Shown in pieces: positions 4,700 through 34,515 of a DNA stretch of 35,357 nucleotides. The translations under genes and the position numbers were made by a program. The DNA is from Catajapyx aquilonaris (taxonomy: Eukaryota). Within the stretch, counting starts at the first letter, position 1, and each line of letters starts with the position of its first letter. Below the pieces are notes generated by a model. That model saw only the letters and a program-made list of their open reading frames with translations, made no database searches and was not told the DNA's origin. The DNA lies in the NCBI GenBank assembly GCA_000934665.2, contig JYFJ02000984.1:62001-97357 (forward strand). Direction: 5' to 3'.

Positions 4700-5070
4700 C
4701 ATATTTTACTCTCGTGTTGTGGCCACTATCACTTTTACTTACAATCTTGGCAAATCGGAGACATCATTACTTGTCAAGCTGACTTGTATGAAGAAATCCA
4801 CATAGGAAGTGTCAAGAGCTGTGTCTTTTACATTCCGCACTATGGCGGAGCGTCGTGGTGTTCTCCTTGCTGTGCCTTCGCGCCTTGAGTTGGCGAGTAG
4901 GCCATTTATGTCGCATTGGAAGTGTCAAGGGCTGTCTGTTTACACTCTTTAAGAGAGTCTTGATTTCTTATTAGTATCCGTATGTGTTTCAGTTGTGGAG
5001 CAGTTGGTGAAACACCTGGTAAGATTACGTAATATTCCACAAGCATACACCCGAAGAAATCCTCAAATTC
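4700..5070. repeat. Scaffold module I/A; paralogous to ~15815-16040, ~18795-18927, ~25720-25950 and ~26410-26520
   Basis: Shared words: TTTACTC..GTG/TTTTGGC; CTTGTCA(A)GCTGACTTG; GGAAGTG.CAAG.GCTGT; GAG.GTCGTGGT; AGTTGGTGAAACACCT; CGAAGA.ATCCTCAA. Confidence 0.75.
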
Positions 5071-5076
5071 TGAATA

Positions 5077-5081
5077 CTTAA

Positions 5082-5120
<39 letters not shown>

Positions 5121-5124
5121 TAAG
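5077..5124. repeat. Back-to-back (AAT)n/(ATT)n microsatellite (self-complementary)
   Basis: CTT-(AAT)9-(ATT)5-AAG read directly. Confidence 0.9.
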
Positions 5125-5283
5125 TTTATTGTAAACCTACCCCTACAAACGTGGTTCGAATTACTCATTAACTTGTGCCTCCAGAGATGACAAATCAAGT
5201 GAGCAGATTTACAGAATATGATAATAAAATAGTATTTCCCTGGGTGTACACAGTCGTAGGTTAATGTAACATTCAATTTCGTA

Positions 5284-5370
5284 AGGTTCAGGTTAATGTT
5301 ATGATACACTGACAAAAATAGTTCTAAAAATTCCCAAGTGCCTGAAGGTAGGAAATCATACTAGTGTCGG
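5284..5370. repeat. Scaffold module B; copies at ~15405-15505, ~27680-27710 and ~32757-32850
   Basis: Shared GG.TTCAGGTTAATG...ATACA; three of the four copies continue into (CCTG)AAG(G/A)TAGG.AATCAT. Confidence 0.75.
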
Positions 5371-5846
5371 AATATAGTCTAATTAGCCCGCTATGCAGTA
5401 GCAGGTATCCTTTTGAGCCGCCAGAATAATCACAAGTCACTTGTGGAGGCAATGCAGGCGTGTGGCGAGAATCATGCTGCCGTCAGTCAGGTGAAAGTTT
5501 GGACCATTTTGGCAATATGCTTGTCGCTCAGGTTCATGGTTGTATCATTCCCTTTCCGGTAATTTTATTGGAAAATCGCTGACTGTTGGTCCAGTGTTTG
5601 AGGGGTCAGAGAATTTTCGATTCGTTGTTGACATTATATGAATTCGTTACAGGCAAAAATGGTGGTGCTGATGATTGACAATTTTTGCCCTTCGTAATGT
5701 GGTACACGCGGGCCAATATTCGCATTGTAGTCGTATCTCCAAGGCGATGATCTGCAGTTAGAAAGAGAAGCTCCACCTCATTTGAGAATATGTTTGCCAC
5801 TTGTTCATGTGATAAACTTAAATCACGTTTTCATGACCACGCCACC

Positions 5847-5867
5847 TATATATATATATATATATAT
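5847..5867. repeat. (TA)n microsatellite
   Basis: About 10 TA units. Confidence 0.95.
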
Positions 5868-6634
5868 GGGAAATGTGTATTTTTCTGAGTATGTGTCAAA
5901 TTTTGTTGACCAGTTCCTTTATAAACTTATATAAGGAGGTTCTGTGCTCTCTATTTTCATACTTGCTTTTATGGGTGCAACCTAGGTCCTGTACTTTGCG
6001 AGAAACTTCGTAAGGTATGCTGAAATATTTGCTACCATAGATGTCCGTCATAATTATCGTTTATTTAGTCTCATTATGTAGCAGCATAGTCATATTACAC
6101 ACTTAAGTGTGTTGTTGATGGTAAGTCCCTCACCGCGTCCCTCTTCTGATGTGTTGTCATTCATTGCTTTCTCCGCAAAATGTGATGAACTTGCGAGCCG
6201 TGACTGGTACACTCAGACAAAGCGCCGTAATATGATGGCAGGAATTCACGCTCACCAGAAAACATGCCGTATTGCTGCATGCAGCTATAAGAAATGGCAA
6301 TTGAAAGTACGAGATAAAATAAAGATAAGGTAAAAGTGGCATATGGAATGATTAATATTAATCCTGATGTAGTCATCCTGACCATAAGTGTCGGGCAATC
6401 TGGTAGACCACTGTTGTTGAATTTTAGCGCAAGTGTCGAAGTACATTGGGCAAAATAAGTCGCTCTCCCATGGTACGTGTCACAATAAATTGGAAGCAAA
6501 TAATTATCAGAGAAGCAAGTAACGCAGTAAGACAAGTAGCTGATACATATATTTATTTACATCAATATTATTTACAAACTTGAACTCGAAAGAGGTTGAT
6601 AAATCCACATCTGTTCTCAGGGATGGTGAAAGTC

Positions 6635-7060
6635 ATTGAGGTCATTTATGTATTAAAAAGTAAACCTATCTTTTGCAAATATGATGATAATTGTTACGGC
6701 GCGACATTCACTTATCCTCAGGTTCCTGATTCCTCTGACCCTCATAATATTATTGGATCATCCCAGTAGGCCTTTTGAAGTTTGAAAGCGAATGTTGGGA
6801 GAGGATTTTGGATTCTTTCCTGTCAAACATCAACCCTCAACTGCCCTGTCCTCTTGACAGACTAAGTTGGGTTTTTTTTATACGATCTGCATTACATATG
6901 GTCGAGAGTCGTTGTCCCTTGGATGGAAATATTTCATGCCAGCAGCACTATATCAGGGTGCTCGTATTTTTTTCCTACATGAAATGGTGGATAATAGGAG
7001 CCTCTCTCATGTCACTGCCATTAGAAAATATGAATGCCTACATTCGTCAAAGATTCGTAA
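6635..7060. repeat. Scaffold module D; second copy ~21215-21690
   Basis: Collinear shared blocks: ATCTTTTGCAAATATGAT, TGACCCTCATAATATTATTGGA, CTCAACTG...TGTCCT.TTGACA.ACTAAGTT, GGAAATATTTCA.GCCAGCAGCACT, TGCCATTAGAAAATAT, AAAACACACTTCAAAATG. Confidence 0.9.
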
Positions 7061-7079
7061 CTATACTCTCGGGTAAGTA

Positions 7080-7215
7080 GAGAGCTGTTATTATTTGTAC
7101 ATAAAATATCTTGTTTGTATCTTCAGCGCACGAGTAAGCGGAAAACTAGACGGTGGCGGGTATAGCTGGTACCTGGCGCCTAGATTCTATAGGCGGCTGG
7201 GGCTGAAGGGGTTAA
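7080..7215. mobile_element. Insertion ending in a piggyBac-like terminus (...GAAGGGG-TTAA)
   Basis: Absent from the module D copy at ~21650-21690. Homology resumes right after GGGGTTAA. No matching TTAA-CCC left end found. Confidence 0.4.
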
Positions 7216-9087
7216 AACACACTTCAAAATGTTGGGTTTCGTTTTGGTTGTGTAGTGTGGCTGATTTGTCTGAGGTTAGGCCTCTAGTCCGTAGTCGAAA
7301 TGTACTGTACCATGTCCTCCATAGTCAACACTACTAGGGGATTTTCCAGGTCGACTCAAATCACCCGAAAAATCACCCGAAGCCTACAAGGTTCTCCACG
7401 GACAGTCTATCATACTTATCAGAAGCAAATTAGATTCATGAAAAAACAACACGGCGGGGGAGGCCGTTGGATCCTCCTCCTTTGCCTGCTGCTTTTAATA
7501 TGCATTATGCATGTGCAACTGGAAGAAGTATTGCATCCCTTTTTGTCCCGCCCTGTGTGTGTATGTTGGGGTGGGGGGATTGGCGTTGTCATTTGCCATA
7601 TTCACTGTCATAATTAATACAGTATTCCCATGTAATTATGTTTCATATCTGTGTTTTCAGGAACATTTTCATCGCAATGAGTCCCGAGATGACCTCACCA
7701 TTGGCCTCACCTGTCTCTTGACCTGCCCAGTGGGCTACGAAATTATTCAACACTAATTTTGAGTGCAACTTTATTGGAAAGTACAATTTACTCGTTGGGA
7801 TAAAAAGGCACTGAGTTGAGAGATATTAATTTCTCCCCATCGTACACACACCCAGCGCCATCGTGTTAAATTGTCACATTTCATTTTCATTTGTACATTA
7901 TATAATAATTATGGTGCTCTTTTCCCCCTCCCCCCGATTTCTCCCCAACGTAAATCTGTAGGTGCTGTAATAGTATCCACATTTCATAACTGATTTTTGC
8001 TCTACTCTGTGCACTTATTGTTGACTCGTACAGTGACGTCCGGATGGGCACGCGTACGGTACATAGGATGAAATGCTAAGTGAATTGCAAGGCAGCTGTT
8101 ACTGAATGTGACTCAATTTCATGAATGCAGGGATACTCAAGTCTGACGCTCAATATAATCTATACATAAACATATGAAATCCTTCAAAAATAATGGTTGT
8201 GCATGGTCTAAATCTTTCCAATATTTTATTCGTCATATTTGTATGTTACACGTTGGCATCATACGTGTAACTTCAAAGGAGAACAGGAATTCCTCACCTG
8301 AAGCATATATTTGGTACCTCATATGGTACCCCAAAGTCCGTTAGCGACTTCTTCAGTCCGTGCATCACCAACCTTCGAAAACGATGCATAACTTTACCAT
8401 CATCACCTAATCCTATTGTGTTCATATTTTGGTTTGTCTCCGAATTTCACTCTTCGTGACTCCCTTCCTCGTTCAGGGGAAATCACGATTGGCTGACGAA
8501 ATCCAATCAAGCTTATCTCTTGCCTGGGGTCTTGATGGATCCAGAAGAGTATAAGGCTCATCAAATCGTGATGATTCAGCAGCGTTGTTGAAATAACAAA
8601 AGAGATGCGACCATATGTGACGTAGTTACATCCTGCTGCATCCTTTTCGCACTGACGATGGCCTCTGCTGTCCTGCGTGAATTCGACCTACGAGGCCCTT
8701 CGTATCTGTCATTGCGGGCAGTCGAACCTCGTCCGAAGGACATCTTGATAGTTTATAGGCTTGGGGATTGAGCAATTAATAGTTAAGCATTGTTACCTTT
8801 CCAGTTAGAAAAATGGTAATCGTTGGACTCATAGCTGGTCCGACCTAGAGGTAAATTAGAAAATAACGATTAGAGCGTAATCACGTCAAAGGGATCTGAG
8901 TTCAATTACAGTTGTTTATTTTGCTAGTGCTTCATGGGTACGATAAAAGCATGATGTTGTGATTACAGGCCATATCAATTTTTTCTCATGGGACTGCTGC
9001 CATCGTCATCACATTTTTGCGACAGTCTGTATCAAAATACTGTCTTCCTTATTAATTCTTCATCATTCGCCCCATAGAATTTTAAAA

Positions 9088-9185
9088 AATTGACGATCCC
9101 GAAACATTACGTGAAAATTCTGAACATTTTTTGCAGTGATTTATTCATAACCTCTCAGTGGTGTAAGTTTCATTGTTGTGTTCTT
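9088..9185. mobile_element. Diverged fragment related to the interior of the 28351-30389 foldback element
   Basis: GAACATTTTT...CATAACCTCTCAGTGGTGTAAGTTTCATTGTTGTGTTC matches the reverse complement of ~29585-29690 (GAACATTTTT...CATAACCTTTCAGTGGTATGCATTTCCATTGTTGTGTTC). Confidence 0.6.
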
Positions 9186-9448
9186 GTCCGTGCTTGTTGT
9201 GGGACATTCTTAATGAGATACAAGTGCCTGGAAATTTAATTAGTAATGAAAGTATTCCTACCTTTTTCTCCTATCTGTGTGACTCTCACATACAGCCAGA
9301 TGCCCTCAATTCCAGATGATGTTACTGGTGGCATTTAACATTATGCCAACGACATTTTTAGAGATTTTTGAGTTTTTCAATTTTATCCTACACTAAAGCG
9401 AAAGCGTGCGAAAGCAGCCCGTATGCAGTCGGTCCAAGCCGGTAGGTC

Positions 9449-9485
9449 AGCACGTGAGGCGGCACGTGAGGAGGCACGTGAGGCG
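9449..9485. repeat. 12-bp tandem repeat x3 (GCACGTGAGG[C/A]G)
   Basis: Directly visible. Confidence 0.9.
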
Positions 9486-10284
9486 TCATTTTTATCTTGG
9501 ATGGTTTCGGGCGGCTCGTACACAGGAATGCCGGGCAACTTGGCTTGCTGTCCCGCCGTCAGGACAGCCATCAGCTGGCTGTGATTCTTCTGTCGTATGT
9601 GTCCCTTGGGGCCCGTATTGGTGAAATGCACGCCTGGCCGCTGGTTTCCTTGGGGCTGCATGTAAACGTGAGCGATTAATGGAAACGTGACCTAAACGTA
9701 AATGGCCCCAAGCCCACTGAACCAACCATGAAGAATCGCAGGCTTAATAACCCAAAAAATGTAAACAATATTCCTTGTCATAGCATCAGTATAAACAGCG
9801 TGGTTAGGGTGATTTTTTGAGTTGTCGCAAATTTGCATTGAATATTCATTATTGCTGCCAACAATTATCATAAGTCCGTTTAATGCAGGTACACCATGAC
9901 GTGCGAGATTACGGAATCCACTACACTACGTGAGGCTGGGGCTGTGGTGTAAAAAATATGCCCCTGTAATGTCACTAGCATGTGTCTTATTACAGTACAT
10001 GACCTGCATGTTACAATTTAGACCTGTTACTTTGTTAACTTGATAATTTCATGACCTTGAAATGTACCCCGTATTTTTTGTGGCCTGTCTTTGCACTTTA
10101 TACGTGCTCGGGAAGGCTGTGGAAAAGGAATGTTGATGGTTATCCAGGAAGTGTAACATGTCGCCTTTTTCCTGTTTAAATATGAACCTCATTGGCATGA
10201 TGCACGTTATCGACGCTTGATTCACTTCAAGATGTCCTGAGTGTCTTGCTTACATTGTTCCTTACCTGTAAATGTCTGTAAGAG

Positions 10285-10695
10285 GTTGCTTAATATTGAC
10301 CAGTAAGCATCATTTTGTACGTAACGTGGTGTTGAGCAAAACTGCTTCGGAGTAATGATGTGGAGTTTGCAGGTGCCACCTGGTCATTTGAAACCAGTCC
10401 GGGTACTCAACAAATCAATTGGGAGTTCTGACACCGCTCCAAGTCGAACTCTGCCTTTTTGTGATTTCTTACGTGTTGTATCCAAGTGAATAATTTAAAT
10501 GTGCCCATAAGTTTGTGGTTCTGTTGTCACTTGTTCACATCATGAACTCAAAGCATATTTTGAAGACAAAGTCACCAACAATGTAGAAAAACCTTTGGTG
10601 ACCCCCCCGATAATTTGAAAGCAGTTACTTAACATTGTCCAGTAAGCGTCATTTTGTACGTAACGTGATGTTGACCAACCCGCTTCGGAGTAATT
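10285..10695. repeat. Scaffold module F: two copies (~10285-10355, ~10622-10695), third at ~21793-21860
   Basis: AA.ATTG.CC.GTAAGC.TCATTTTGT.CGTAACG...TGTTGA shared. Confidence 0.85.
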
Positions 10696-10789
10696 AATTA
10701 ATGCCACAGTACGTCATCATTTTTGCACTGAACAGCAGCCGGCATAATCGACACCATACATTTGCAGTTAAATGTGTAGAGATAACATT

Positions 10790-11040
10790 CCCAACACATC
10801 TTGTCGCTCTCAGCTCTCGAGAAGTTGTGGCCGTCGTGGGATGCTGTCCTTAACAACTCACCTGCACCATCCTTAGGATCTCTTCTGGATGAGGTACTTG
10901 TGTATTACGAGCAATAGTCCGAGTGGTCATGGTTACTTGCAGTGTATGTTGTAAATAAATTAAGTGGGTTTGAGTAAAAAATGTGAGCGATGAAGTAGTT
11001 AGCCACCTTTGAGGAAGAGGATTTCAGGACCAGTTAACTG
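10790..11040. repeat. Scaffold module G; copies at ~11710-11815, ~18940-19200 and ~26240-26350
   Basis: CACATCTTGTCGCTCT, TTCTGGA.GAGGT, GAGCAATAGTC and TGAGGAAG..GAT.TCAGG shared among copies. Confidence 0.85.
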
Positions 11041-11474
11041 ATGTGTCTGTTGGATTCTTATTATTATAAAAATATGCATGGTGATGGTAGAAGGCAATAA
11101 ATTAGGACAAACCATGTGTTTCTTAATGGTTATAGCATGTGACTGATTTTGCTGAGCTTCTGCCTGAGCTTGACACCCTAGCAGATGTCTTATTTGAGTT
11201 TTTTCACTCCGAATCTGGATAACTGGTAAAATTATGGCCGAATGAAACATCTGTGATATTAACAGGGCATCAAGGATTGCATTCTGGTGTTTCGTAAAGC
11301 GAAAGAGGTTTATAATCGTACAAACTGAGGGTTCCTCTTTGGTTGCGGACGTGGCTCATTCAGCACTCTGAATTTGATGTGAAGCCTGGAAATGCTGCCT
11401 GATCATTTGAAAATAGTCGGAATACTCAACAATAATATCGTAGATATCGTCACCTAGATTATTGACTCCTTTGA

Positions 11475-11650
11475 CACAGTGAGTGCTAATCAAGTAATGT
11501 CGTTTGTATTGTTTGGATGGACTTTTTGACCCAAAATTAAATGGTAACATTTAGTACTTGTATATTTTGTGCACACTGTTGTTGAATATTTTAGCACACG
11601 TTTTCAGTAAATGTGGCGAAATAAATAGCTCTCCCTTGATGGGCTGTACC
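11475..11650. repeat. Scaffold module J; second copy ~31270-31440
   Basis: CAGTGAGTGCTA.TCAAGT, TTGTATTG.TTGGAT, GTTGAATATTTTA and GCTCTCC.TTGATGGGCTG are collinear. Confidence 0.8.
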
Positions 11651-12867
11651 CCCCATACAATTTTTGTCGGTATCTAGACACCCTTCATGGAATTGTGCAA
11701 CTTTCAATGGTTTTGAGTAAAATTTGAGCTATTTGAGTCGTTAGCTGTCTTTCCTTATCATTTCTCATCATTTTTGGTTGAGGAAGGCGATATCAGGACC
11801 AACTGAAGTGACTGTTGCTTTTCTTTCCACTCTGTTACAATTACCGGCTGTACCACAAGTTTTAAAATTAATTTGGTGAGAGAAGTTATTTTTCTTAGTA
11901 GGCCACGTGAGCCTCCTTTCTAAGGACTTGAGCATATCAAAAATGGTGTGCTGCAGCTCGTCCACGGCGAACAACATCTGGGCCGGATGCGAGTTAGCCA
12001 CGAAGTTCTCGCGATTATCAACAATCGCAGTTCGCCTTTTATGTAAGAAGCTTGACCTGCTTATACCGTCAAGATAGTGGTGATGATAATTTATACTGTA
12101 GTATCATCTCTATATTTTGTTGCCAGTGAATGACCTTATTCTTTTATATTTCCAATGGTCGTCTTGAGTCAGGCTAATTCTTCCAGCTCTCAGGTAAGGT
12201 TCTCTGGTAAAGTTATCCCCTCATTGCCGGGCGATATAAATGAAACTTACCGCATCTGATATATTGGAACTCGCAGCACCTGCATTTGGTTCCACTTTTA
12301 TTTCTTCTAGGTTATGTTCTTCCGATCCCGCCGTTATATGTTGCTTATTGACAGTTCTTTCGGGTGTTGCTGCTGGTCGAAATTTAATGCAACTGCATAC
12401 ATCCACCCTAATCTTTGTCTGATGCCTGTGTTGCCCAACAGTATGGCTGGAAAAATAGAGAAGTACGTCAGAGCGATGTTCCGCAGCTCTATGCTTGCAT
12501 ATACAGCCTGAAAGTCCCTTCCTTACCTTCACAACTACTGTCCGGTCCATCCTGATCTGCGTGTATAGGTGGACTCCACGTGGATTTTTCCTCGCTTTTA
12601 TAGGTTTTGCTGTTACCATGACGTAATAAATTTGGGAGAAGGATTTTTTTTCCTACCCCCGCTTGCTGCCCCCCTTGCTGCATCTGACGAAAATTGCATT
12701 TTGCTTCGAGTGTCCTTTGATAATCTTGTACTGTCATGTGTTGATTATAATACTATACTGTTACATCTATTAATGATTTTGAGTTGATTTGGCAAGCACT
12801 GTATAGTCAGGTAAACCCATGGCCATGTCCAATTCCCAAATAACAGACAGTATTTTTTCACGATCGG

Positions 12868-12945
12868 TTAATTAATATTTATTTATTAATTTTACCCCAT
12901 GCTGGCCAACATGGCCCTTTAGGGGGACCTCCTCCCCATACAGAG
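12868..12945 (-). mobile_element. Probable non-LTR (L2-like) 3' tail
   Basis: Minus strand ends ...GGGCCATGTTGGCCAGCATGGGGTAAAATT-AATAAATAAAT: a GGCC..GGCC stem followed by a (TAAA)n tail, like insect LINE 3' ends. Confidence 0.4.
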
Positions 12946-13101
12946 AATGTTCACATTGTGCGGCAATTTGGTACATTTACAAAGCATAACATTATGACCA
13001 GGAAGCCAAATACTGAATCATTTACTGGTCGGCTGCGGGGAAAAAAAGAAAATCAAAAATAAATAAACACGGTCGGAGGGAGGGAAAAAAGATGAGCATA
13101 C

Positions 13102-13107
<6 letters not shown>

Positions 13108-13134
<27 letters not shown>
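13108..13134. repeat. Poly(A) tract, 27 nt
   Basis: Directly visible. Flanked by the inverted 9-mers GATGAGCAT / ATGCTCATC. Confidence 0.95.
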
Positions 13135-13619
13135 CATGCTCATCATTTACATATGCTCAGCTTACTTCATTTCGCATAGGTCTATGATCACTGTAAGATC
13201 GGCAAAAAACTGATATCGAAGGATTAAGTAAGTTGATTATTATGAAGGAAAAAAATCTTCCTCGTATGCGTTCCAGTCAATGCTCGCAGTTTCCTCGTCA
13301 AAAAGCATACATCTTCAGCCCATTTTCATGACTTGGTGTCTGTAGATTGGGGTAATCATGCTGCCTTATTGTAAGTACAGTAGTTGCTAATTCAGTGGTG
13401 CATCTATTAGGCCCAATTGGATGATCTCTCGACGACATAGCACGTTTAGGCGTGTCTTTTATCGTGAAGGTCTTTCAATACTTGCTTCGACCATTGTCTT
13501 GATTAACTGCTCGGCCTTACCTAGATAATTTTTAAAGTCACGAAACTAGTGCTTGGGGGCTGGGTACCAACTGCTGACGTGGAACATAATTACTACTTGT
13601 CATAACTACATTGACTCGC

Positions 13620-15245
13620 CGCAGTCACAAACGTCCAACTTGCTTCGTCGTATGGTGTCATTGAAACCTGTCCTTGGTTGTGTCGCAATTGAAGGGTATA
13701 TGATGATAGTGATATGAAATAAATATTTTTCTCCAATATTAATTTTTCCGTGTATTATGAAACAAGCCAGCGCCATTTGCACAATATACGCCACCGTCAT
13801 CAGCTTCTGATAGTCACTTCCGCTTGGAGCAGTGCCAAACACGCTACAGAAGGTCTCGTAGATGCTACGAGAATAGGTGCTTGCTGGCAGGCATCGCGTC
13901 AATTCTTTAATATTACAGATTGACCCAGCCAGTGAAGCGTCTTGTCACAGTCGACAATCTCGTTTTTCACAAGCCATAGTGCTTGATATTTAAGTTTTAT
14001 ATGCCACTCTGCCATTTTATGTGCCCACTCGGTAACAATGCCGGCAGCGTCGTGCACCAATGTTGGTGATGGTGAATATTTTACCACAAGTGTCAACTTA
14101 TTGCGAATGATTTTTTTTTACTGTAGGGAACGTAACTGATACCAGATACTTGCATGTCTATAATGCCCTCATATAATTGTGAAATTTTCAGCTCCTTCCG
14201 TCACATACATGTGTCAATGGCTGGGTCAACTCCTTGGCGTTACCTTCTTATAGCCATCAGGTATAGGCTTGGTTGTTTAACATCCTTTCCACTCAAATAA
14301 ACTCTGACAAGTAACACGTGGCCCAGGCAAATGCATACGGTGGGTGAGATGTGGGTAATTTACTGATATATTGTGGCCAATAAAATTAGTTTGAAAATGG
14401 GTTACAGTATTGCCTTCTTTTGAAGATGGGACCAGCTCTGTGGTCATCTCCCTGTGTAGTATCACGCGAGTGAAACACATCTGATCGTCGTCCTGGTTCA
14501 CACTAGTTTGCGCACTGTCGCCGATTATTAACTGAGCTTTTAAAATGAAGCATCTGACAAGTAGAGAGATTCTGAATGGCAAAATATTTTTTGTTTGGAC
14601 CCAGTTCATTTCGCATTGTTGCAGTACTGGGACACTCGAGTCTCACGTGAACCTCCCTGGTTCAGATGTCGGAAGGAACGTTTTTTCCGTTGTTGTGGTT
14701 TGTTTTGATGTAATCCCAGTGAGTGACGTGTAAATTGAAATATAAAATTTAACAATTTTAATACATTTAAGTTACATTTTGACGGATAGATCCCCATTCA
14801 TCACGTCTATTCGTATGGTTGTCTGTAATAATCGTTATTAATTACTTCATTTTGATCAACTTGGGCGGAACCAGTAATTCTAAGATGTTCCAGCTGAGTT
14901 GCCCGATACAATTCCCATTATTTAACAATAGATGACATTAATTTTGCATGGCGCAATGCCTGCTTACTATCATCCTTTATGGCGCATGTTGTAGTAGGTA
15001 ATGCAAGGTTTTGTCTTTTTCGAATCCCTTCCAGACGAAGAAGTGATATCAAGTCCTATTGAAATATCTCTCGACTTATAATGTGATGTATGTAGAAGAC
15101 AATGCATCCGGACAGCGGGTTTTGTTTTGGTAATGTGGTATGTCTGACTTGTCTGAAATGTGTTTTTAGCAATTATGCATATTTGGCCCAGCAGCACCAT
15201 AAGATGCATCATTAGAATCTTAATTTGTTAGGGTGCTACCCACTT
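13620..15245. repeat. Scaffold module C (~1.6 kb), uninterrupted copy
   Basis: Collinear with 22420-22590 plus 23470-25663 and partly with 27380-27470. Examples: CGTCTTGTCACAGTCGACAATCT, GTGCACCAATGTTGGTGAT, GGCCAATAAAATTAGTTTGAAAATGG, GCATCTGACAAGTAGA.AGATTCTGAATGGCAAAATAT, TTCCAGCTGAGTT, CTTCCAGACGA, AGGGT.CTACCCACTT. Confidence 0.92.
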
Positions 15246-17244: not shown

Positions 17245-17639
17245 ATGCCTGTGCCATAGAATGTGATGAAGGAAAACAACATTGTTTTAAATGCGTTTCT
17301 TTGGGCTAACTTGGTGCGGTACATGCTGAAAGCTTAGTGCTGTGACAGAGACTCCCAGGCAATAGCTGAAGTTTATTGTGCGTGGGATGTTCTCATTTTG
17401 TCCTATTCTTATAAGCCTAACATGAGGTTCACTTCACCCTTTAGGCTATGGGGACACAACATCTGGTGCCACTAGTGTCTCACATGCTGTGAGTCCTGTG
17501 ACTTGCACTATCCCAATATAATGCACTGCTCCTGTCTTGAAGGATATAACCACTGATGATGATAATGTGGTCAACAGCCTCGGTCGTATTTTTTCTTATG
17601 ATTGTATTCCTGTACTAATATGTATGAAGAGTTCTACAG

Positions 17640-23053: not shown

Positions 23054-23202
23054 GAATACACTCGCCTCTGCGACATACACACGTCCCCGTATTTCACAAC
23101 CATCCTACGGTGGATTTGGATTAGCTTAATCCCTTCACTCCACAAAAATCTGACGATGGCCCGCCGTTCTTCTTTGGTGCACGTTTTAAGTGGTGCCACC
23201 AT
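23054..23202 (-). pseudogene. Mariner transposase N-terminal HTH fragment
   Basis: MVAPLKTCTKEERRAIVRFLWSEGIKLIQIHRRMVVKYGDVCMSQRRVY is a typical mariner first HTH. It is truncated before the conserved W. Confidence 0.9.
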
Positions 23203-24659: not shown

Positions 24660-26119
24660 ATGTGTACTGTCGCCGAATATATTGCTGGGCATTTTAAATG
24701 AACTGAGCGTATCGCATCTGACAAGTAGACAGATTCTGAATGGCAAAATATATCATTTGTTTATGGTCCAGTCCATCTTCGCATGGTTGAGGCAGTGGGA
24801 CACTCGTATCTCACCTGAACCTGCTTGGTTCAGCTGGCAGAGGGAATTCTCATCCACGTTTACCTTTGTTGTGGTCTGTTTTGGTGTATTCCCTGCCGGT
24901 GACTGACAATTGCCTGTAGAGTTACATTTTGATGAATAGATCACCAGTCATATGGGAAATGGGCCTTTTCCTGATAATGTGCCAAAATTTTGTTGATGAT
25001 TCCCGTGACAAACTAGGTACAGGGAGGCGCTGTTTCTCTGCCTCCAATCGGTTTGAATGACTGGATTTTGATAGATACGTCGCGTCGCTCTGAAAGATGG
25101 CCACGGTAGTTATTACTTCACCTCCAAATATGCACCAGCTGGAAAGCGATAATATTAAAAAAAAGCATTATAACACATCCCCGAGACAGAACGGCTAGTA
25201 TAAGTGTTACCAGTGCCTCTTGGAGTCTATCAAACTCATCACGTCTATTTGTCTGTAATAATCGCTATTAATTTCTGCATTAATTTTTGATCGACCTGGA
25301 CGGATTCCCAGTAGGCATAATTCCAAGATCTTCCAGCTGAGTTTCCCAATACCAGTTCCCATCTTTAACAATGTATGACGTCTGCATAGGAGAAGACCTG
25401 TGTACTATGTTGTAGTGAAGTAAATGCTTTTAAACCTTTTTATTGTTCGAATCACTTCCAGACGAGAAAGTTAGTGATTTCTGGTCCTACAGAAATGTCT
25501 GTCGGATTATGATATGAGGTATTTGCTCTGGGACACATTGAGGGTTCCTATTTGGTCGTGGGGTTATTTCGCGGAGCCTTTTGGAGTTATACGTATGTTG
25601 TATACAGAAGCATCTCATGATTTGCATCATCAGAATATCTATTTTTAAGGGTACTACCCACTTTTAAAAACAAAAAAGCTATTACTGGTGCCAACAAAGC
25701 ATATGTAATAAATCGCACATGTTTTACTCATGTGTTTTGGCCACGTTCCCTTACTATTACTTACAAAATGAAAATTTAGAGACAGCTGTACTTATCAGTG
25801 GTCTTCTGAATGTGATTCAGGGCTCCCGGGAATTGTTCCATGATATACATACGTGATTATCTCCTCCATTGTGACTGGCTTCTCCCCATTTACAGCCCTG
25901 GCGCTCATGTACTTGTCACAAGAGCTGTCTGTGTCTTCAATGTGGTGCTTCAATTGCCGGGTAGTGAATGAAGCGCCTTGTATGATGTTCCGTCACCCTT
26001 ATTTCGAAGCCATCATCATTACTATCCTGTTGAAGAATGCAGCTCCTGTCCATATGGTTTTATTAGTAGAGTGTTTATCTTTTTCTCTAATGTTCTTGTG
26101 GAGACACTTGGAGGAGTTG

Positions 26120-26200
26120 AGGATGGCCATACTGCCCTGCTGAGCAGAAACGCTTGACACCTGAATATTTGATCCTGCTTTCCGGACACACAGCCCGATT
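26120..26200. repeat. Scaffold module K; second copy ~30458-30540
   Basis: GGATGGCC.TACTGCCCTGCTGAGCA.AAAC..TTGA.ACCTGAA..TATTT.ATCCTGC...GGACACAC shared. Confidence 0.85.
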
Positions 26201-27269
26201 ATAAATGTTTTGTCACTTTTCGAGGTGTCACATACCCTCAATTCAATTCTGGATGAGGTGTCCTAGCCAAAGTTATTGCGAGCAATAGTCCCAAGTGGTC
26301 TTCATTTATCTCTCTTCTGTTTGAGGAAGGGGATATCAGGCCCCGCTGATGTACTTTAGTTTACGAAGAAGTCGTTATTTGAATATATTGATAGACACAT
26401 TACTCTCTTGAAGAGCGTCGTGGTTTTTCTTACGTTGCACTTGCAGGGTAGTTGGTGAAACACCTTGTAGACTTGCATGATATTCCAGAATCTTGAACTC
26501 GAAGACATCCTCAATGCTATCATCAGGCTTCGGTGCACGATCTTTCTGCATTCTTTTCTATTCCTCCGGTTTTCGGATCTTTCGTGGTACCGTATATCGT
26601 GGGGTGAGAACAACAGGGTTCCATCTGACAATTTCACCAAAAATGAGTTATTGTTGGTACAACATATAGTTCCATATGCAATGATCTATATTCTCCAGTG
26701 ATTTTATCCCTATATCTCTTAAACTGACGGTGGCAAATCAGGGCGCAACTTATTGTTAGTTCCATCTGCACCATACAGTGAGAACAACAAGGTCCTAAAT
26801 GCAGAAGCATGTGATTAATTGGTGCAGGTTTCACTGTGATCAGAAGGTAACATATGAACAAAGAGAGGCCATCTTCAGAACATTTTGTGGGTTAGATCAA
26901 AATGGCCCCCACAAAAAGGCACACAGCTCACACACATGATAACCTGATAAATGAAGGTCGTGTTGTCCATACAGACCCATTTCATCAGCATTATGATAGT
27001 TGGCAGCAATTGAAATGGATTTTCCGGGTATTGTGCACGAATGTTGTTGGATATTGTCACGCAAGTCTCGAAGTACAATACAATACAATACATCACGGCC
27101 TTGGGCAAAATTAGTCGCCATTCTAGGGTTCGCTGTACAAATCGGACAAATGTGTCTGTCTAGAATGCACTCAATGTAGTTGTGAAATTTTCAGCTAGCG
27201 TACATCACAAGGCTCTGGCCTGTCGTGAAACACAGACATAGACACACATACCTCTCTTTCGTACAGGCC

Positions 27270-27370
27270 TGGAAGGGCTACCGCCCGGGGAAGCCTTGCC
27301 TACATTGTCTCACCTCATTCGCCTGCCTCCGCATCCGGGTCAGCTCTGGCGACCAGCCAGTACCACTTGG
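27270..27370 (-). pseudogene. Possible non-LTR ORF2 linker fragment
   Basis: GWSPELTRMRRQANEVRQ resembles the WWxxELxxLR...R motif between endonuclease and RT in R1/LOA-type LINEs. Short match. Confidence 0.3.
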
Positions 27371-27991
27371 GTCCTTGCCTCTGGGCCATTTTATGTTTCC
27401 ACTCTGTGTTACCATACCGCCCTTGTCTTGCACCAATGTTGGTGAATATTTTACCAATATAATATTCACCAACATTGGTGCATACAGTACCACAGGTCTT
27501 GTGTAAAATCATTGGTAAAATAATGGAGATCGTCGTGAGAGTCAGTGTCTTGACATTTAGACCTTATTTACCGAATCAGGGCCTTTGTTACGTTTTCTTT
27601 CTCTTCCTTGTCGGTGAATTTTCTGCCATTATACTTAGCTTCAAATGCCTAATAAGTGGCCCAAATAAGGTAGTGAAGTATTGGCTTCAGGTTAATGTTG
27701 GTATACAAAAATATCCTCCTGCATCAGTATTGGAAGCGATGAATTATGGATCCCGCTTCGGCTTTGATCCATGAATCTTCTCCTGAAACCCGGCGGCCTT
27801 TTCCTGCTCCAAATATGTCCTTGTCCTTTCTGCCTCTGCGTCTTATGTGCCTCTGTCGTGTTCCGTCATAGCTTTGCAGTAATGGTTGCGATCTCACTAC
27901 ACTGCCTCGAATATGAAGGAATCAAGGGAACTGCAAGTCCTCCCATCACGTGGAAAGTTCTGTAAGCGCGAGTGAATGCTATACTGTATAA

Positions 27992-28183
27992 AGGCCGGTA
28001 TCCACGTACTAGATTCTCGCATACGAGGAGCCGCGAGGAGCCAACTGCGCATGCCCAGATACGAGGAAAGGGGGAAAAAGTTGAAAATTTTCGACTTTTT
28101 CCCCCTTTCCTCGTGTCTGGGCATGCGCAGTTGGCTCCTCGCGGCTCCTCGTATGCGAGAATCTCGTACGTGGATACCGGCCT
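27992..28183. mobile_element. Palindromic PIF/Harbinger-type MITE (192 bp)
   Basis: AGGCCGGTATCCACGTAC...GTACGTGGATACCGGCCT. Two 96-bp arms meet at GAAAA|TTTTC with no loop and 3 mismatches. TAA TSD at 27989-27991 and 28184-28186. Confidence 0.9.
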
Positions 28184-28350
28184 TAAGGCTTCACAGCTTT
28201 CTTGATAGTTCGGGGCTTGAAGATGGGAGATAAAATAGTTCCGTCTAAGGTGGACTCAGTTGCAATGCAGCTCATTTATGAGACACCGTCACTTATTATT
28301 AGATGTCATTGCGACAATAAAGATGTTGCAAAGCGTGTATTGAATAGGTA

Positions 28351-30389
28351 CTATTGACCGCAAAAGTAATGTCGCGACTGTTTATGTGCTTTTGTGTTTA
28401 TGTGTTGGTAATCCTGGGCGCTGCCAGGTTACGGACATGTTGATTTGGCGATGTTCCGGAATCGACAACACTCTGCTCACCGGTCACGGCCGCGGTCCCT
28501 TGGCCGCACAGTCCCGCAAGTGCATGGCCGCACGGTCTGGGTCGCTGTTTGAGAGCGCCGCTACTTATTCGTGCAACTTATTTCTACGAGTATAGTTTGG
28601 GTAATTCCATGTGAGATCATACAACTATGTTCACCCGACATTTTTGTTTTAGAAAATCAAAATTTGGCACTTAGGATCGTATTTTGTCAAGGTCACAGGA
28701 ACATATTTTTCAAACCAGATAACCACTGTAGGTCACGAGAAATGAGCGAGGTAAAAAATGGGAACTTTTCCATTCTGATGTTTACAATAACCCGATAATA
28801 ATTTATCTAATAATTATTATGCGTCCTACATACATGCAAAATGGGGCTTAATATTCTACAATGTAACGCTGAACCCGCAGATAACCTCCAACAAATTATA
28901 CGATTAAAATTACGTTTCATTTTGGCAGGTCATATCCCTTCAGTGGTGCAAGTTTCATATTTGCCCTCGTATTAGGGTCCGAGATGTAAAATACCGTATA
29001 AATAAGGCGGCCGGGTGCGCCTGGGTCATTCGATGACAAGGCGTCCAAGTTGGTGGCTCGGCCATCTCAGAATGTATTGTTGTAACCCCCATATATTATA
29101 GTACGTAAGTTATATGAACGGGCGTGAGATGGACATTTTGGAGGCAACGCAACGGTTTTAACCTAGAGCGTAAAATGGCGATACTAAAAAATTCCCATTG
29201 TTGTGCAAAAAGGACACATTTCAGGTGGTCCAATGAAATTGTTAGCCGCATGCTAAGAGTATGAAATTAATGTGGTGAGTACATGGTCATCTACTCATTA
29301 CCCCTGGAGAAGGAAAACATCACCAGCCTCTATTCTATCTTGGAAATAATAAATCCTGACATGTCCGTTTTCCATTATTTGGTCTTTTTTTTCCCTCTTA
29401 TGTGACACTGGGAAATTTTAAATTTACACGTGTACTGACCAAGATGACCAAATGATGGGAAAACGTACATGTCAGGACAACAATACATTCTGAGATGGCC
29501 GAGCCACCAACTTGCCCTCCTTGTCATAGAATGACCCAGACGCTCTAGGCCACCTTATTTATTTTATATCTCGGACCCTATTACGAACACAACAATGGAA
29601 ATGCATACCACTGAAAGGTTATGGGTAGCAGATTACTCACAAAAATGTTCGCAAAATTCGATTCGGTGCGGGTCGTCACGTCAAGGGTCACGCAACTTCG
29701 TAATATTGCGGAAAAGGGCGAAAGAGGCGCATCCGACCTCCTTATTTGCTGTATTTTACATCTCGGACCCTAATACGGTGGCAAAATTAAACTTGCACCC
29801 CTGAAGGGATATGACCTGCCAAAATGACACGTAATTTTAATCGTAGAATTTGTTGGACGTTATCTGCGAGTTCGGCGTTACCTTGTAGAATATTAAGCCC
29901 CATTTTGCATGTATGTAGGACGCATAATGATTATTAGATAAATTATCGGGTTATTGTAAACATCAGAATGGAAAAATTCCCATTTTGACCTCGTCATTTC
30001 TCGTGACCTGTAGCGGTTATCTGGTTTGAAAAATATGGCCCTGTGACCTTGACAAAATACGAACCTGAATGCCAAATTTCGATTTTCTATTTTTAAAAAT
30101 GTCGGGTGAACATTGTTGTATGATCTCACGTGGAATTACCCAAACTATACTCGTAGAAATAAGTTGCCCGAATAAATAGCGGCGCTCTCAAACAGCGACC
30201 CAGACCGTGCGGCCATGCACTTGCGGGACTGTGCGGCCAAGGGACCGCGGCCGTGACCGGTGAGCAGAGTGTTGTGGATTCCGGAACATCGCCAAATAAA
30301 CATGTCCGTAACCCGGCAGCGCCCAGGATTACCAACACATAAACACAAAAGCACATAAACAGTCGCGACATTACTTTTGCGGTCAATAG
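28351..30389. mobile_element. Non-autonomous foldback-like DNA transposon, 2039 bp, ~670-bp TIRs, TA TSD (Tc1/mariner-type ends)
   Basis: TA-CTATTGACCGCAAAAGTAATG...CATTACTTTTGCGGTCAATAG-TA. Arms ~28351-29020 and ~29725-30389 are reverse complements (roughly 90% by eye). Mirror ORFs 28386+ and 30145-. No transposase inside. Confidence 0.93.
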
Positions 30390-31464
30390 TACATGCTCCG
30401 TATTAATTACTGCTGAAGAAGTGATCCTGACCATTAAAACCAAGGATTAATACCATTTGGATGGCCTTACTGCCCTGCTGAGCATAAACATTTGAGACCT
30501 GAAATATTTAATCCTGCAGTCAGGACACACGGCCAGATTTGAAATTTCTCATTTTGTTCTTGGCTAGGATTGTCGTTTATCTGCAAAAACAACTTTCTTT
30601 CAATAATTGTCGCCGGCGTGTCACGGACCTTCTGAAAAATTCTTCCAGTGCCTGTTTACTCTCCATATATAATGCTGTGCACCAACGGTGTGGAATATTG
30701 TCAGGCGAGTGTCGATATAAACCGGACGGATTCCGTCACTGTCTCGTGGTAAGCTGGGAGGAGGACTTCATGTGACTACTTCTGCTGTCTTCATCATATG
30801 ATTGAATACAACTGACAAGTGAGCCAAGGTGTGTGTATCATTAGGTTGCCCTCATACAATTGCGATACGTTCAGCTTCCTTCATCGCATGTTGTCTGCGC
30901 TGATATTTCTCGGTAGAAGGATTATCTAGGTTGCTTTGGCAAGTAAATACGAAGGATGTGATGAAGATGTATTGAAATGTGCTGTAGCCAATATTATAAC
31001 TATATTTGCAAATAATTACCATACCAAAGAATTCCGTAATATTCTAAAACTACTGGTATACAGTTGCTGTCACAGATATTTTTATCATTGATTTTTATTC
31101 AATAAGGGTATGCGTGCCATCTGAAGTACTTAAGAAGGGGCATGACAAGTTGTTTCGCATAGTTGGGGCAATGGGCAATGATCTGTTATTATTACAAGTG
31201 CATTGAAAGGCTACCGCAGATGTTGGATTGAACTGCAGATGATTTTACATCTTACTGGCACGACTTCGACGCAGTGAGTGCTAGTCAAGTCATATCTCAG
31301 TTGTATTGATTGGATTGAATTGTTGGCGTTTTTCGCTACCTGTATAATTACACCTCGGGCGACATTGTGGTTGAATATTTTAATCCAAGTCTCGAATCAA
31401 ATTGCGCTAAATGAATTGCTCTCCTTTGATGGGCTGCATGCCTCACTCAGTTTCTTCTTGTGCG

Positions 31465-31715
31465 TGCCCTCACCGGTCTTCATCTCCTCTCTCCTCATAT
31501 TCCCCACCTCCTTCCGGGCATTTTTTTTATAAAAAAAAATCGTAAGGGTTTATTGCTGATGGTGGCTTTTGTTGGTCGAGATGGCGTCGAATTACGTATT
31601 TTCGATTAATTCCACTCCTCTTCTTTCTTCCTGTTCGTCATCGTATCCGTCTGCTCCAGCACATTACTGTGCTGAAGAGCAAGAGCCAGAAGCAGATGCT
31701 GTTTCTTTAACTTAA
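31465..31715 (-). pseudogene. Myb/SANT-like DNA-binding domain fragment, of the kind found in PIF/Harbinger accessory proteins
   Basis: Manual translation KQHLLLALALQHSNVLEQTDTMTNRKKEEEWN* and, after disruption, KKNARKEVGNMRREEMKTGEG. Fits LL.L......iE...td..t...K...W and K..a.K....rre..KTGGG. Confidence 0.7.
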
Positions 31716-34515
31716 GTTTCAGGCCTCACGTTGTGCTGCCCATCTCGATAACCAGGTCGTATTCTAGGAATATAAGCCCGCAAAGCAAGCCAACCAACAT
31801 ATCGCGGAAAAGCTCGTCCAAAATTACAACACCAACTGTGGTGTTTGTGACTACCTGTAACAATGTGTTATTAGTCTGTGTGATGCGACGTTTTTCGTTC
31901 CTTTAGCTTGAAACTATCCCGTCATTTTTGCCACGTATAAGTACTCCCCATGCTGTGCACCGACGCGAGTTTCGATAACAATATTTCGCCATATAAATTC
32001 TTCTCCCGTTGCAAGCAATATTACTGAGTTATTAACCTATACCTGGCGTCTTTCGAAGCGAAGTTCGAAGTTGATGTTAGTTTCTGCTGTCATCTCCAGG
32101 TACATTTGCCTCAAATCCATGCTGCCATGGAAGACTAACTTGGTTTATATAAGTAGATCTCCTTAATACCTGGACGAGATTCGTTGTCCGTTGAACAGAA
32201 AAATTTCATATCACCCGGTCTCCCAGGTCCAGCTGTTGAGTCAGCTTCTCTTTCCAGAAGGTTTTACGGCTGTTGAGGTTATGTATACCCGTTTCCTGAA
32301 TGTGGTCTGCACCCAGCACCTCCATCTCCTCTGGTGCAGGCAACAATTTTTTCAGCTGCCCAATGTGAACCATTCACAATAATTATTGTTAATTAATCTA
32401 CATTCCTCTCACGAGTATAGTGGCATTGTTGAGTACCTCATAGTGCCTCAGATAGATTGTGAACCAGTTCCCTGGGAAATCACACCTCCGCCCTCCATTA
32501 TCATAATCTGTTCGAGCAGCTTAATTTCTCAATATATAAACCTGTCATTTATTAATGTGCTGTCGCTATAATTCCTGTGAGAATCACGTACAAGAAGGTG
32601 TTGGGGTCTCTCTTTCGTTGTCGTCTTATCTGTAATGTAACCTTGCATTTGGATATACACGTCCACGTCCTACTGAAATATGACCTCGGTATTAATTGTG
32701 TCATTTCTCCTACGAAATATGCACGCACTGCTTGTGTCACATCACATAAAACGCAATTTTGGCTTCAGGTTAATGGTGGAATACAATGCCGAAAATAGTT
32801 ACAAATGAGTACCTATAAAGATAGGCAATCATAGCATCTGAATGGAGTAGTTCCTTGCAAGCACTCAGCAACCTCTTGAGGCAGTCTTAATTCCATACAC
32901 ATTTGCAAAAGTGCGGTCTTCCTTTGCTATTCCTTAACGATGCGTTCGTCATCTCAATATGTCAAGTGTTGCAGTCACACTGTGCCTCTGGTGAACTATC
33001 ATTGCAGCACATGCAGGTCCTTAACTAATTGAAGCTTTCTAACAAACGCTCCTTGGCACGCCCGCGCCCTCCTCTCCTCCGCTCTCCAGTGACTCGTCAT
33101 CATTAGCTGGCTGGCTCAGAAGTGAGCCCAGTGTGGTGAAGATACTCAAAATTTATCGGCAGATATACTTTGCATTTTACATTTAAATGGGTCGTTCAGA
33201 AATGATTAGAACTACAATTTTTTTCTGCACGCTAACCATTTAATGGGACTGACTCTTTCATTGCGTCGGACAGAGCGAAGTAGCTAGTCGCAGTCCATGG
33301 CCAGTTGTTGCTGGACGGTAGAGACCTGACTCTCCTCAACAGCTTCTAGAGTCATCACCCCAATTTCTGCCACAGTATTCATGGCAAACATTTCGAATGC
33401 ACTCATCAATTGTTGATCTCCTTTCTTCCTTCTGCTTATTCTTGATGTGGTTGTCAAAGCTACAATAAAGACATTGCAATGATTTATGCAATCAAACAGA
33501 TATAGTTCGAGAGAATACAGTATATTATTAAAATACATTCTGAGCAATGAACTCCCACTTAATCACAATACTCGTAATCAAATTTCAGAAGAATGCCGAA
33601 GGAAGACGTCGTCGATAAACTTGACAATTATTTCTTCGCCTACTCGTTTAGCATTAATAATTAATTGCTCTGGAATATTATTCGACGGATAACTAGTAAA
33701 AGGGCATGATTGCAGGCATAGCCGTATGTAGGAAGATGAATCAGTGATGATAAGACTGGCAGTGTCGCTCTTTCCTGTAACAGTGTGAGTCCACTTGAAA
33801 AGATGCAAGTGAAAGTGTTCAGAATCTTCTTTTTGTTTCATAATTTCGGGCAGTTGATGGCAGCAGAAATGTGATGGCCTCATTCTATTTCTACTAGAGC
33901 TGTTAATGCACAGGCATGTACAGTCATTATACACAGGTGATTATGTATTACGTATATTACATGCTTTCTGGTGGCATGATAATCCTAACAGAGTAACACG
34001 GGACATGTAATTATTGCTTCAACCTGAAGGGATAAAGAAGCTAGTGCTTGTAGTAATATAATATTATTGCTATCGCTGACCTTTAGCAACCATTTGAATA
34101 CGTTGGTGCCTTTTTTTCAATTTCTTGCTCGTATCTCTCCCACCCCTAAAATAAGACTGGGAAATCGTAGATCTTGAGTTCAGTGTTCGGAGACAAATGT
34201 TGCGATTAATTTTCTATTGACACTAATTTAATTCGTTGCAGGCAGAATACTTGTGATTGGCAACTTTTGCCTTTTGTAATGTGGCATGATCTGCGAAATA
34301 AATATTTCTCTCCCATGATGTGTCTTGTGTCTAGTTTTCCTTCATTGTGATGATTTCGGCTTGCTTTCGTCACGTGGTGTCATTATACAGAGTCGTCTGC
34401 TTGCTGACCAGATATTGAATATTCCTAATATGATTGTTGGATTATTTTGTTTTGATGCATTAATCTTAAACTTACAGTAAATTGTCAACGTTCTCTTTCA
34501 CATTGAGAGCTTTCC

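Follow-up and report, generated by a model that had tools for sequence, protein, structure and literature searches.

Macrosatellite-like arrays, which arise by local tandem or segmental duplication, offer one comparison for the locus described here, which occupies most of a window of 35,357 nucleotides (the whole stretch of DNA that was analysed) from Catajapyx aquilonaris. As in such arrays, copies at the locus are adjacent, share one orientation and are related by colinear multi-module blocks; divergence is layered, indels are of any length, each copy has its own transposon insertions, and the backbone is unique elsewhere at a likeness of at least 80% (positions 13000-32999). The locus differs from them in that its order is far more scrambled and its units, at about 11, 7 and 8.6 kb, are unequal in length and also differ in content. 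A second comparison is TDRL, which likewise permutes order without inversion, as seen where module blocks g..j and l m trade places between the two units I and II. TDRL is defined, however, on genes of circular organelle genomes, so that it serves as an analogy for the non-coding nuclear DNA studied here, and at this locus remnants of both copies persist, loss being incomplete.

Flamenco-type piRNA clusters are characterized in three reports (PMC10643416, PMC11400887, PMC10495008) as strand-biased stores of transposon fragments. Known clusters of this type are rich in LTR or ERV elements. A long locus, fragments in one orientation and the possibility of local duplication are the points of likeness, and the idea of a "memory of past invasions", to which the preliminary description of this DNA alluded, belongs here; the strand bias of the fragments at our locus is, however, not significant, its modules are single-copy at the likeness given above and not transposon-derived, its transposon content is modest and its transposon fragments come from DNA transposons. 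With CRISPR-like arrays the likeness is limited to repeats that alternate with different sequences: the repeats at the locus are 40-700 nt long, 64-93% alike, of ~24 kinds and irregularly spaced, its "spacers" are kilobase-scale transposons, and the DNA is eukaryotic. We conclude, with a probability of about 0.65, that we are dealing with an old macro-repeat, non-coding and apparently specific to this locus, in an animal-like genome, which repeated local tandem duplication with random loss has shaped and into which transposons later inserted.

Repeat structure and orientation

Self-comparison of the window (blastn, word 7, E<1e-4) yielded 35 direct HSPs with 5459 aligned columns and two inverted HSPs, while five local shuffles of the window gave 0 direct and 0 inverted HSPs, confirming the diverged direct repeats that a preliminary description of this DNA had placed along the locus. 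Searches with nhmmer and 400-nt chunks returned 59 merged rows, 50 of them direct and nine inverted; eight of the inverted rows fall within a foldback element at 28338-30402, and the remaining one (9091-9186 / 29582-29678) involves the same element. The modules had been called always direct repeats, and in the backbone no module is inverted and all repeats share one orientation. We counted ~24 module families with 66 occurrences in place of the "about ten modules" first proposed. Identity between paired modules is 64-88% with gaps counted and 69-93% on substitutions only, and transitions are about as frequent as transversions. The short module previously called E is present (7651-7692 / 15728-15769), and the H repeats noticed at ~11678, 14165, 21918, 27163 and 30845 are real, but each marks only the 3' half of a member of a 165-nt family with ~10 copies. 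The array extends slightly beyond both ends of the span first given to it, 4700..32850, with module u to the left (Table 1) and a match between 5524-5706 and 34113-34288 (nhmmer) to the right.

The most fitting reading of the locus is a tandem series of three to four macro-units, every one of which begins at module a and has three H copies. These H copies start at 6397, 11564 and 14046 in unit I, at 20578, 21840 and 23679 in unit II, and at 27028, 30671 and 31353 in unit III, which is more scrambled and more deleted than the others. An HMM search with H gave nine + strand matches, with E values from 4e-10 to 5e-37, and a short partial copy at 27426, within unit III; the sole minus-strand match (E 0.0016) is the palindromic core of the module. 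The spacers at 7700-10250 and 11830-13600 in unit I are backbone-like in composition.

Table 1. Features of the locus, with positions counted from the first nucleotide of the window; macro-units are given as the locus reads best
Feature	Position	Strand	Description
Module u	4014-4214	+	Leftmost repeated module; pairs with 9183-9391 (E 9e-10, K2P 0.40)
Macro-unit I	4693..15800	+	a, b, c, d, e, H1, g, h, i, u, j, k, j, l, m, k, n/H2, L, p, q, H3, r, s, c, i
Module H, reference copy	14046..14206	+	~165 nt; ~10 copies, all + strand, three per macro-unit
Boundary module a2	15800..16036	+	Sister copies a1 4693-4872, a3 18779-18928, a4 25706-25803
Transposon block	15950..18780	-	Tc1-like DDE_3 transposase fragment and very high-copy short repeat (~18469-18745)
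Tc1-like DDE_3 fragment	17893-18318	-	Pfam score 41.5 bits (cutoff 28.6)
Macro-unit II	18779..25706	+	a, l, L, h, (mariner), v/H1', m, g, j, H2', p, (mariner), q, H3', r, e, x, s
Mos1/mariner-type transposase fragment	19640..20058	-	Second HTH and linker, roughly residues 45-169
Weak Tc3-like HTH	20258-20464	-	Weak transposon fragment
Insertion with Mos1/mariner N-terminal HTH_48 fragment	22590..23470 (ORF 22945-23274)	-	Alignment gap against unit I
GC-rich insertion	24140..24650		~0.5 kb, missing from unit I; GC 0.50; 19-nt and 21-nt tandem repeats
Macro-unit III, possibly with partial unit IV	25706..34288	+	a, b, t, L, b, H, Q, c, (foldback), t, v/H, p, n/H, g, x, c, d
Foldback-type transposon, high-copy	27974..30402		Palindrome with 114-nt arms at 27974-28201; long inverted arms at ~28338-29141 and 29439-30402
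Weak zf-RVT	34701-35357	-	Weak transposon fragment; tail resembling non-LTR reverse transcriptase

Units I and II are colinear at eight landmarks (g, j, H2, p, q, r, s and a), and indels are frequent and non-triplet in the colinear block that joins 13600-15960 to 22400-25800. Between the same two units, modules l, h, m and e have shifted in position with their orientation unchanged, in agreement with the earlier view that order is partly conserved and partly permuted. A rhythm of ~10 kb had also been suggested, and this is found in one colinear chain (10788-15940 against 18940-25801), where the offsets of pairs are 8.2-10.4 kb; outside that chain they span 0.3-28.6 kb. No single ancestral order that we could construct does better than 16 runs for the 66 occurrences, compared with 16-20 in 20 shuffles. 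Plain tandem copies plus deletions thus scarcely outperform random order, and many nested events must be assumed.

Divergence between module copies is layered, with a K2P distance of 0.07 in the youngest pair, a2/a3, which includes a 42-nt stretch at 98% identity, 0.20-0.31 between units I and II, and 0.3-0.4 in older pairs. Islands of 40-80 nt reach 84-98% identity against ~70% in their flanks. Module H and a few of these islands are better conserved than the neighbouring sequence, which could mean constraint.

Copy number and composition

Copy number was taken, over positions 13000-32999, as the depth of public DNA contigs of the same organism aligned at a likeness of at least 80%, a measure that is blind to copies below this level, so that very old dispersed families with copies 65-75% alike would escape it. 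The aligned contigs are short (0.7-3.8 kb) and probably stem from the same data as the assembly, and they give no independent support for the order of modules. Run X5, which bears the same species label and comes from another sample, contributed only short, diverged contigs that aligned to high-copy pieces alone, and so bears on the inserts and not on the backbone.

Backbone bins at depth 35-58, and so single-copy by this measure, made up 14 of the 30 bins, while the 13 insert bins ranged from 115 to ~7000; about half of the bins are repeat-derived. Eight backbone bins, three of which contain H copies, were without any other contig at a likeness of at least 80%. Composition is uniform along the backbone (GC ~0.40, AT skew ~-0.09), with T exceeding A on the + strand throughout both backbone and flanks, and the inserts have a GC of 0.45-0.50 and an AT skew of ~0.

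Inserted transposons

The preliminary description had found no match to a TE or gene. This is correct for the repeated modules, but the unique pieces between them do match transposons (Table 1). The block at 15950-18780 has a GC of 0.466 and an AT skew of +0.015, against 0.40 and -0.09 in the backbone, and depth rises from a baseline of ~35-40 to 115-258 over 16335-18335 and to 4554 over 18336-19002. The mariner fragment at 19640-20058 has SETMAR / Mos1 HTH as its nearest Atlas clusters (0.95, 196 shared features) and lies in a bin of depth 116; relatives of the second mariner fragment, the ORF at 22945-23274, matched it in tblastn at 19628-19992 on the minus strand. That ORF has 440 relatives at E<=1e-3, with Pfam HTH_48 in five of the eight relatives sampled, and bin 23005-23671 has a depth of 445. 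The GC-rich insertion is high-copy at its start (depth 312 in bin 23672-24338), with loose ends at 24131 and 24190, and the arms of the foldback element are complementary at 93-98% in a region, 27674-31008, where depth reaches 2000-7000. High copy number and a composition unlike that of the backbone agree with the earlier suggestion that the pieces differing between rounds are later gains. Homologous-protein searches among longer proteins with the RT-like tail and the Tc1 ORF found nothing, which counts as weak evidence.

The regions surrounding the mariner and Tc1 fragments, scanned over 15900-21000 and 22300-24800, showed no terminal inverted repeats, suggesting that these elements are truncated or decayed. 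The minus strand carries the two mariner fragments in colinear order, and the translations of both contain the region around an "RSGRP"-like motif. We considered whether they could be halves of a single element split by 3 kb of backbone and rejected this, as their translations overlap and are not complementary; DNA similarity between the two was not detected by blastn or nhmmer self-comparison. All five transposon coding fragments (three firm, two weak) are on the minus strand, with a chance probability of about 0.06-0.25, which is not significant. Pure neutral insertion does not predict such an arrangement.

An alternative is that the locus is a piRNA cluster of the unistrand type, or some other long non-coding unit transcribed from the + strand, that grew by local duplication and stores antisense fragments of transposons. 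This is the "memory array" of the preliminary description in its known biological form. Such a cluster would be consistent with the minus-strand position of every identifiable transposon coding fragment, with the single orientation of the backbone repeats and with the repeat-derived half of the bins; AT skew of the kind seen here is linked to transcription, and the excess of T over A on the + strand fits + strand transcription weakly. However, three to five fragments on one strand fall short of significance, and the same strand bias is expected of transposons inside an ordinary intron. The repeated modules, moreover, are single-copy at a likeness of at least 80% and carry no transposon domains, which indicates that the sequence that recurs is not transposon sequence. 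We regard a piRNA cluster as unlikely, and the fuller version, in which the whole 4-34 kb array would be one + strand piRNA-type or lncRNA unit that expands by local tandem duplication and random loss, traps antisense fragments of DNA transposons and uses the better-conserved H, with its three copies per unit, as a processing or regulatory element, as quite unlikely. We found no evidence for a dedicated array of repeats plus acquired fragments of the kind that had been proposed: the fragments are ordinary dispersed transposons, and the repeats are irregular, diverged and unevenly spaced.

Other origins considered for the modules

The modules might, instead of being local duplicates, be remnants of one or more dispersed transposon families of great age, with the pieces nested in one another and gathered at this locus. 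Very old families could produce a module order scrambled nearly to random and the fairly sharp ends that are common to the copies of H and of some other short modules, and depth would reveal their other copies only where these are at least 80% alike. Independent insertion, however, should leave about half of the pairs inverted, and there are essentially none; colinear multi-module blocks of 2-5 kb join the units; and the eight backbone bins without another contig at that likeness, three of them with H, also count against dispersed families. The modules also lack transposon protein domains by Pfam, and the scans for terminal inverted repeats returned no inverted pairs in the regions covered. 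We consider such an origin improbable; dispersal as one known TE family, which had been raised at the outset, is not seen at a likeness of at least 80% in 13000-32999.

A tandem multi-exon gene family or an array of alternative exons, with the conserved islands as exons, would account for the contrast between the islands and their flanks and for several splice-like sequences, namely the TTTTCAG that ends several H copies and the GTGAGT / GTAGGT on the minus strand of module a. The codon-position comparison proposed in the preliminary description points to non-coding sequence: codon periodicity of mismatches was present in 0 of 17 ungapped runs between module copies, and only 34 of 180 gaps between copies are multiples of 3. 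Similarity between copies in tblastn extends over several frames on both strands, with no frame preferred. No Pfam family was found at E<=0.01 within backbone modules in a search of the 295 ORFs of at least 50 aa in the window, and none in 101 shorter ORFs, which were drawn from the 165 located in spacers among 348 of 33-49 aa in the window. A homologous-protein search among proteins of near length found no relatives of a backbone ORF, again weak evidence, and the minus-strand backbone ORF at 6164-6556 gave no usable Atlas match. Past the splice-acceptor-like end of H, no reading frame is consistently open 3' of its copies, and translation of the candidate exon in module a runs into stops whichever of the three frames is read. 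By Pfam, tblastn frames and codon position, the backbone modules resemble non-coding DNA and show no exon behaviour, which makes an exon array very improbable; the decayed virus or multi-exon gene earlier offered as an alternative is without support.

Least credible of all is a cluster of small structured RNA genes, for example a tandem-expanded miRNA cluster, since the short islands conserved in one orientation that mark miRNA clusters, and that the locus also has, were accompanied by no hairpin common to the copies of any module in folds of both strands of 23 module copies (z -3.1 for t2 on the minus strand but +0.28 for its sister t1 on the same strand, and every other fold weaker than z -2), by 0 pairs in the consensus fold of nine H copies, and by no tRNA and no Rfam match at gathering score.

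Origin and significance of the locus

Under our preferred reading of the locus as an old, non-coding macro-repeat, a backbone of several kilobases would have undergone several tandem duplications of differing age. Growth of the backbone by local duplication, already proposed in the preliminary description, is supported by its single-copy depth at a likeness of at least 80%, by the colinear blocks of several modules and by the layered ages of the copies. Partial tandem re-duplications, each followed by random loss of one copy, would then have altered the order of modules without ever inverting them, and this may be why every repeat is direct and yet the order is partly scrambled. The duplications themselves may have come about by unequal crossing-over or replication slippage, with random loss afterwards. 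Nearby direct copies may occasionally have been homogenised, as the a2/a3 pair suggests, and dispersed transposons would later have inserted independently in each unit, giving the "different unique sequence in each round" that had first drawn comment. The locus as a whole presumably serves no function.

Growth of this kind is an ordinary mode of genome growth and no new kind of system. Were small-RNA data to show the locus to be a source of piRNAs, it would be a modestly interesting cluster in a non-model animal. Later transposon insertions can mimic "acquired spacers", and without RNA evidence loci of such build should not be read as new adaptive arrays. The importance of the locus beyond annotation is small; what it illustrates is that nested tandem duplication and loss can scramble the order of modules while their orientation stays.

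Repeated modules and macro-units

Comparison of the window with itself (blastn, word size 7, E < 1e-4) gave 35 HSPs in direct orientation, covering 5459 columns, and 2 in inverted orientation, whereas five locally shuffled versions gave none of either kind, so the repeats of the preliminary description are real. A more sensitive nhmmer scan in 400-nt chunks yielded 59 merged rows, 50 direct and nine inverted; eight of the latter lay within the foldback element at 28338–30402, and the ninth (9091–9186 with 29582–29678) involved it as well. Identity between copies was 64–88% including gaps and 69–93% on substitutions only, and the modules sort into about 24 families that occur 66 times in all. 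The array spans roughly 4014–34288, a little more than the 4700–32850 first proposed.

Module a delimits the macro-units (I, 4693–15800; II, 18779–25706; III, 25706–34288), each with three copies of H, a 165-nt family with nine strong matches (E 4e-10 to 5e-37) and one partial, all on the plus strand; the positions previously listed for H and for the shorter module E were found again. Units I and II share a colinear order for eight landmarks (g, j, H2, p, q, r, s, a), while l, h, m and e have moved with orientation unchanged, which agrees with the partly conserved, partly permuted order noticed before; unit III shows more deletion and more scrambling. The best single ancestral order needed 16 runs for the 66 occurrences, and 20 shuffled orders needed 16–20. 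The reported ~10-kb rhythm reflects one colinear chain, 10788–15940 against 18940–25801, with offsets of 8.2–10.4 kb. K2P divergence was layered, at 0.07 between the second and third copies of a (a2/a3), 0.20–0.31 between unit I and II blocks and 0.3–0.4 for older pairs, with transitions and transversions about equal in number. Within a2/a3, a 42-nt stretch (15847–15888 / 18831–18872) is 98% identical and its flanks ~80% identical with gaps, which could reflect local gene conversion or constraint; its minus strand carries splice-donor-like GTGAGT and GTAGGT.

Coding and structured-RNA tests

The modules are neither coding nor structured RNA. Indels of all lengths were frequent in the longest alignment (13600–15960 against 22400–25800), 34 of 180 gaps across all direct HSPs were multiples of three, and the proposed check of codon-position bias between copies showed that none of the 17 ungapped runs holding enough mismatches was 3-periodic (every p ≥ 0.168). 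When 295 stop-to-stop ORFs of at least 50 aa were compared with the window by tblastn, paralogous copies appeared in several frames and on both strands, the behaviour of nucleotide rather than protein similarity. Only two Pfam matches exceeded the curated cutoff: DDE_3 and a marginal hit to the translated 21-nt minisatellite (555–872; 28.0 bits, cutoff 27), interpreted as a repeat artefact. These ORFs held no Pfam family in backbone modules, and no relatives of two backbone ORFs were found. Module copies shared no common hairpin, the nine H copies no consensus structure, and the window contained no tRNA genes or Rfam families at gathering score.

Copy number and identity of the inserts

Four DNA runs from one sample contain 93–94% of the sampled words of 13500–23499. 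Depth was summed over contigs of two of these runs and a fifth run from another sample, in 30 bins spanning 13000–32999, and counts only copies of at least 80% likeness; the contigs probably derive from the data that the assembly was built on. Against a single-copy baseline of ~35–40, the 14 bins at depth 35–58 were exactly the backbone stretches, 13 exceeded 100 and three were intermediate (70–83). At this likeness and over this span the backbone is therefore unique in the genome rather than dispersed, and the round-specific sequences are dispersed repeats. Inserts have GC 0.45–0.50 and AT skew near 0, and the backbone is uniform, with GC ~0.40 and AT skew ~-0.09.

Features of the window, with positions, strand and supporting evidence
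Feature	Position	Strand	Evidence or depth
Minisatellite	526–890		21-nt unit, ~12 copies, 95% identity
Module a	4693, 15800, 18779, 25706
H, unit I	6397, 11564, 14046	+
H, unit II	20578, 21840, 23679	+
H, unit III	27028, 30671, 31353	+
Tc1-like DDE_3 fragment	17893–18318	minus	Pfam, above curated cutoff
Very high-copy short repeat	~18469–18745		Contig depth
Mos1/SETMAR-type second HTH + linker (resemblance)	19640–20058	minus	Atlas clusters, tblastn
Mos1 HTH_48 fragment	22945–23274	minus	440 relatives at E ≤ 1e-3; HTH_48 in 5/8 sampled relatives
Foldback-type element	27974–30402		Long inverted arms, very high copy number; depth 2000–7000
zf-RVT, weak	34701–35357	minus	E 0.0025; 219-aa open frame running off right end
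Backbone bins	13000–15667, 20337–22337, 24339–26339, 27007–27673, 31009–32999		35–58
High-depth bins	16335–18335		115–258
High-depth bin	18336–19002		4554
High-depth bin	19670–20336		116
High-depth bins	23005–24338		312–445
High-depth bin	26340–27006		132
High-depth bins	27674–31008		About 2400–7000

Scans of 15900–21000 and 22300–24800 showed no terminal inverted repeats flanking the Tc1 and mariner fragments, which are thus truncated or decayed. The two mariner fragments are colinear on the minus strand, and the 3 kb separating them contains backbone modules; a single split element was rejected, and they are probably separate insertions, because both translations cover the region of an RSGRP-like motif. 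The HTH_48 fragment sits within an 880-nt insertion missing from unit I. The foldback-type element comprises a perfect-centre palindrome with 114-nt arms (27974–28201) and, at 28338–30402, inverted arms of ~0.8–1 kb with 93–98% complementarity around a short core. At position 18633, within the short high-copy repeat, summed depth rose to ~18,500 over a baseline of ~35; this repeat had no tRNA or Rfam match. Judged by its weak zf-RVT match, the frame at the right end, with no relatives among the longer proteins searched, probably represents the C-terminal portion of ORF2 from a non-LTR retrotransposon. A 162-aa minus-strand frame (24264–24752) with an Ala/Glu/Arg-rich, coiled-coil-like stretch lies in a unit II-specific insertion, overlaps a 21-nt tandem repeat and matched no Pfam family.

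The window (35.4 kb, GC ~42%) is eukaryotic and most likely animal, as its Tc1/mariner transposase fragments and non-LTR reverse transcriptase-like tail suggest; Atlas clusters nearest the mariner fragment at 19640–20058 were commonest in Arthropoda and Mollusca.

Origin of the locus

Our favoured explanation, to which we give a probability of roughly 0.65, is nested tandem duplication and loss followed by independent transposon insertions. Whether it arises through unequal crossing-over or through replication slippage, a tandem duplication never inverts sequence, and when partial duplications recur in nested fashion and either copy is then lost, order is permuted while orientation is kept; transposons would have inserted later, independently in each macro-unit. 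This reading fits because it explains together the exclusive direct orientation, the colinear blocks, the layered ages and the single-copy status. The tandem-duplication/random-loss model of mitochondrial gene orders (PMC5975268, PMC3283314) follows the same logic, and this locus shares with it permuted order and kept orientation.

An unlikely alternative is a unistrand piRNA-type cluster or other plus-strand non-coding unit. The plus strand has more T than A throughout the backbone and both flanks, an excess that the inserted transposons lack and that is possibly a sign of a plus-strand transcription unit around the window; this uniformity, together with the minus-strand position of all five transposon coding fragments (three firm, two weak), resembles the strand-biased transposon stores described for flamenco-type clusters, but a strand count of five is not significant and the recurring modules are not transposon-derived. 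Slightly less probable is an old dispersed transposon family whose copies, below 80% likeness, would escape the depth test, a reading opposed by the direct orientation, the colinear blocks and the single-copy backbone depth at ≥80% likeness. Modules as exons of a tandem multi-exon gene family are very improbable, contradicted by the gap, mismatch-periodicity, tblastn-frame and Pfam results, and a small-RNA cluster is still harder to credit given the missing shared hairpin, H consensus structure and Rfam or tRNA match.

The earlier picture of local duplication plus foreign pieces holds in outline, but these pieces are ordinary insertions of transposons, and there is no support for the dedicated memory array to which the locus had been likened. 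The locus is a decayed macro-repeat of an ordinary kind, though unusually scrambled.
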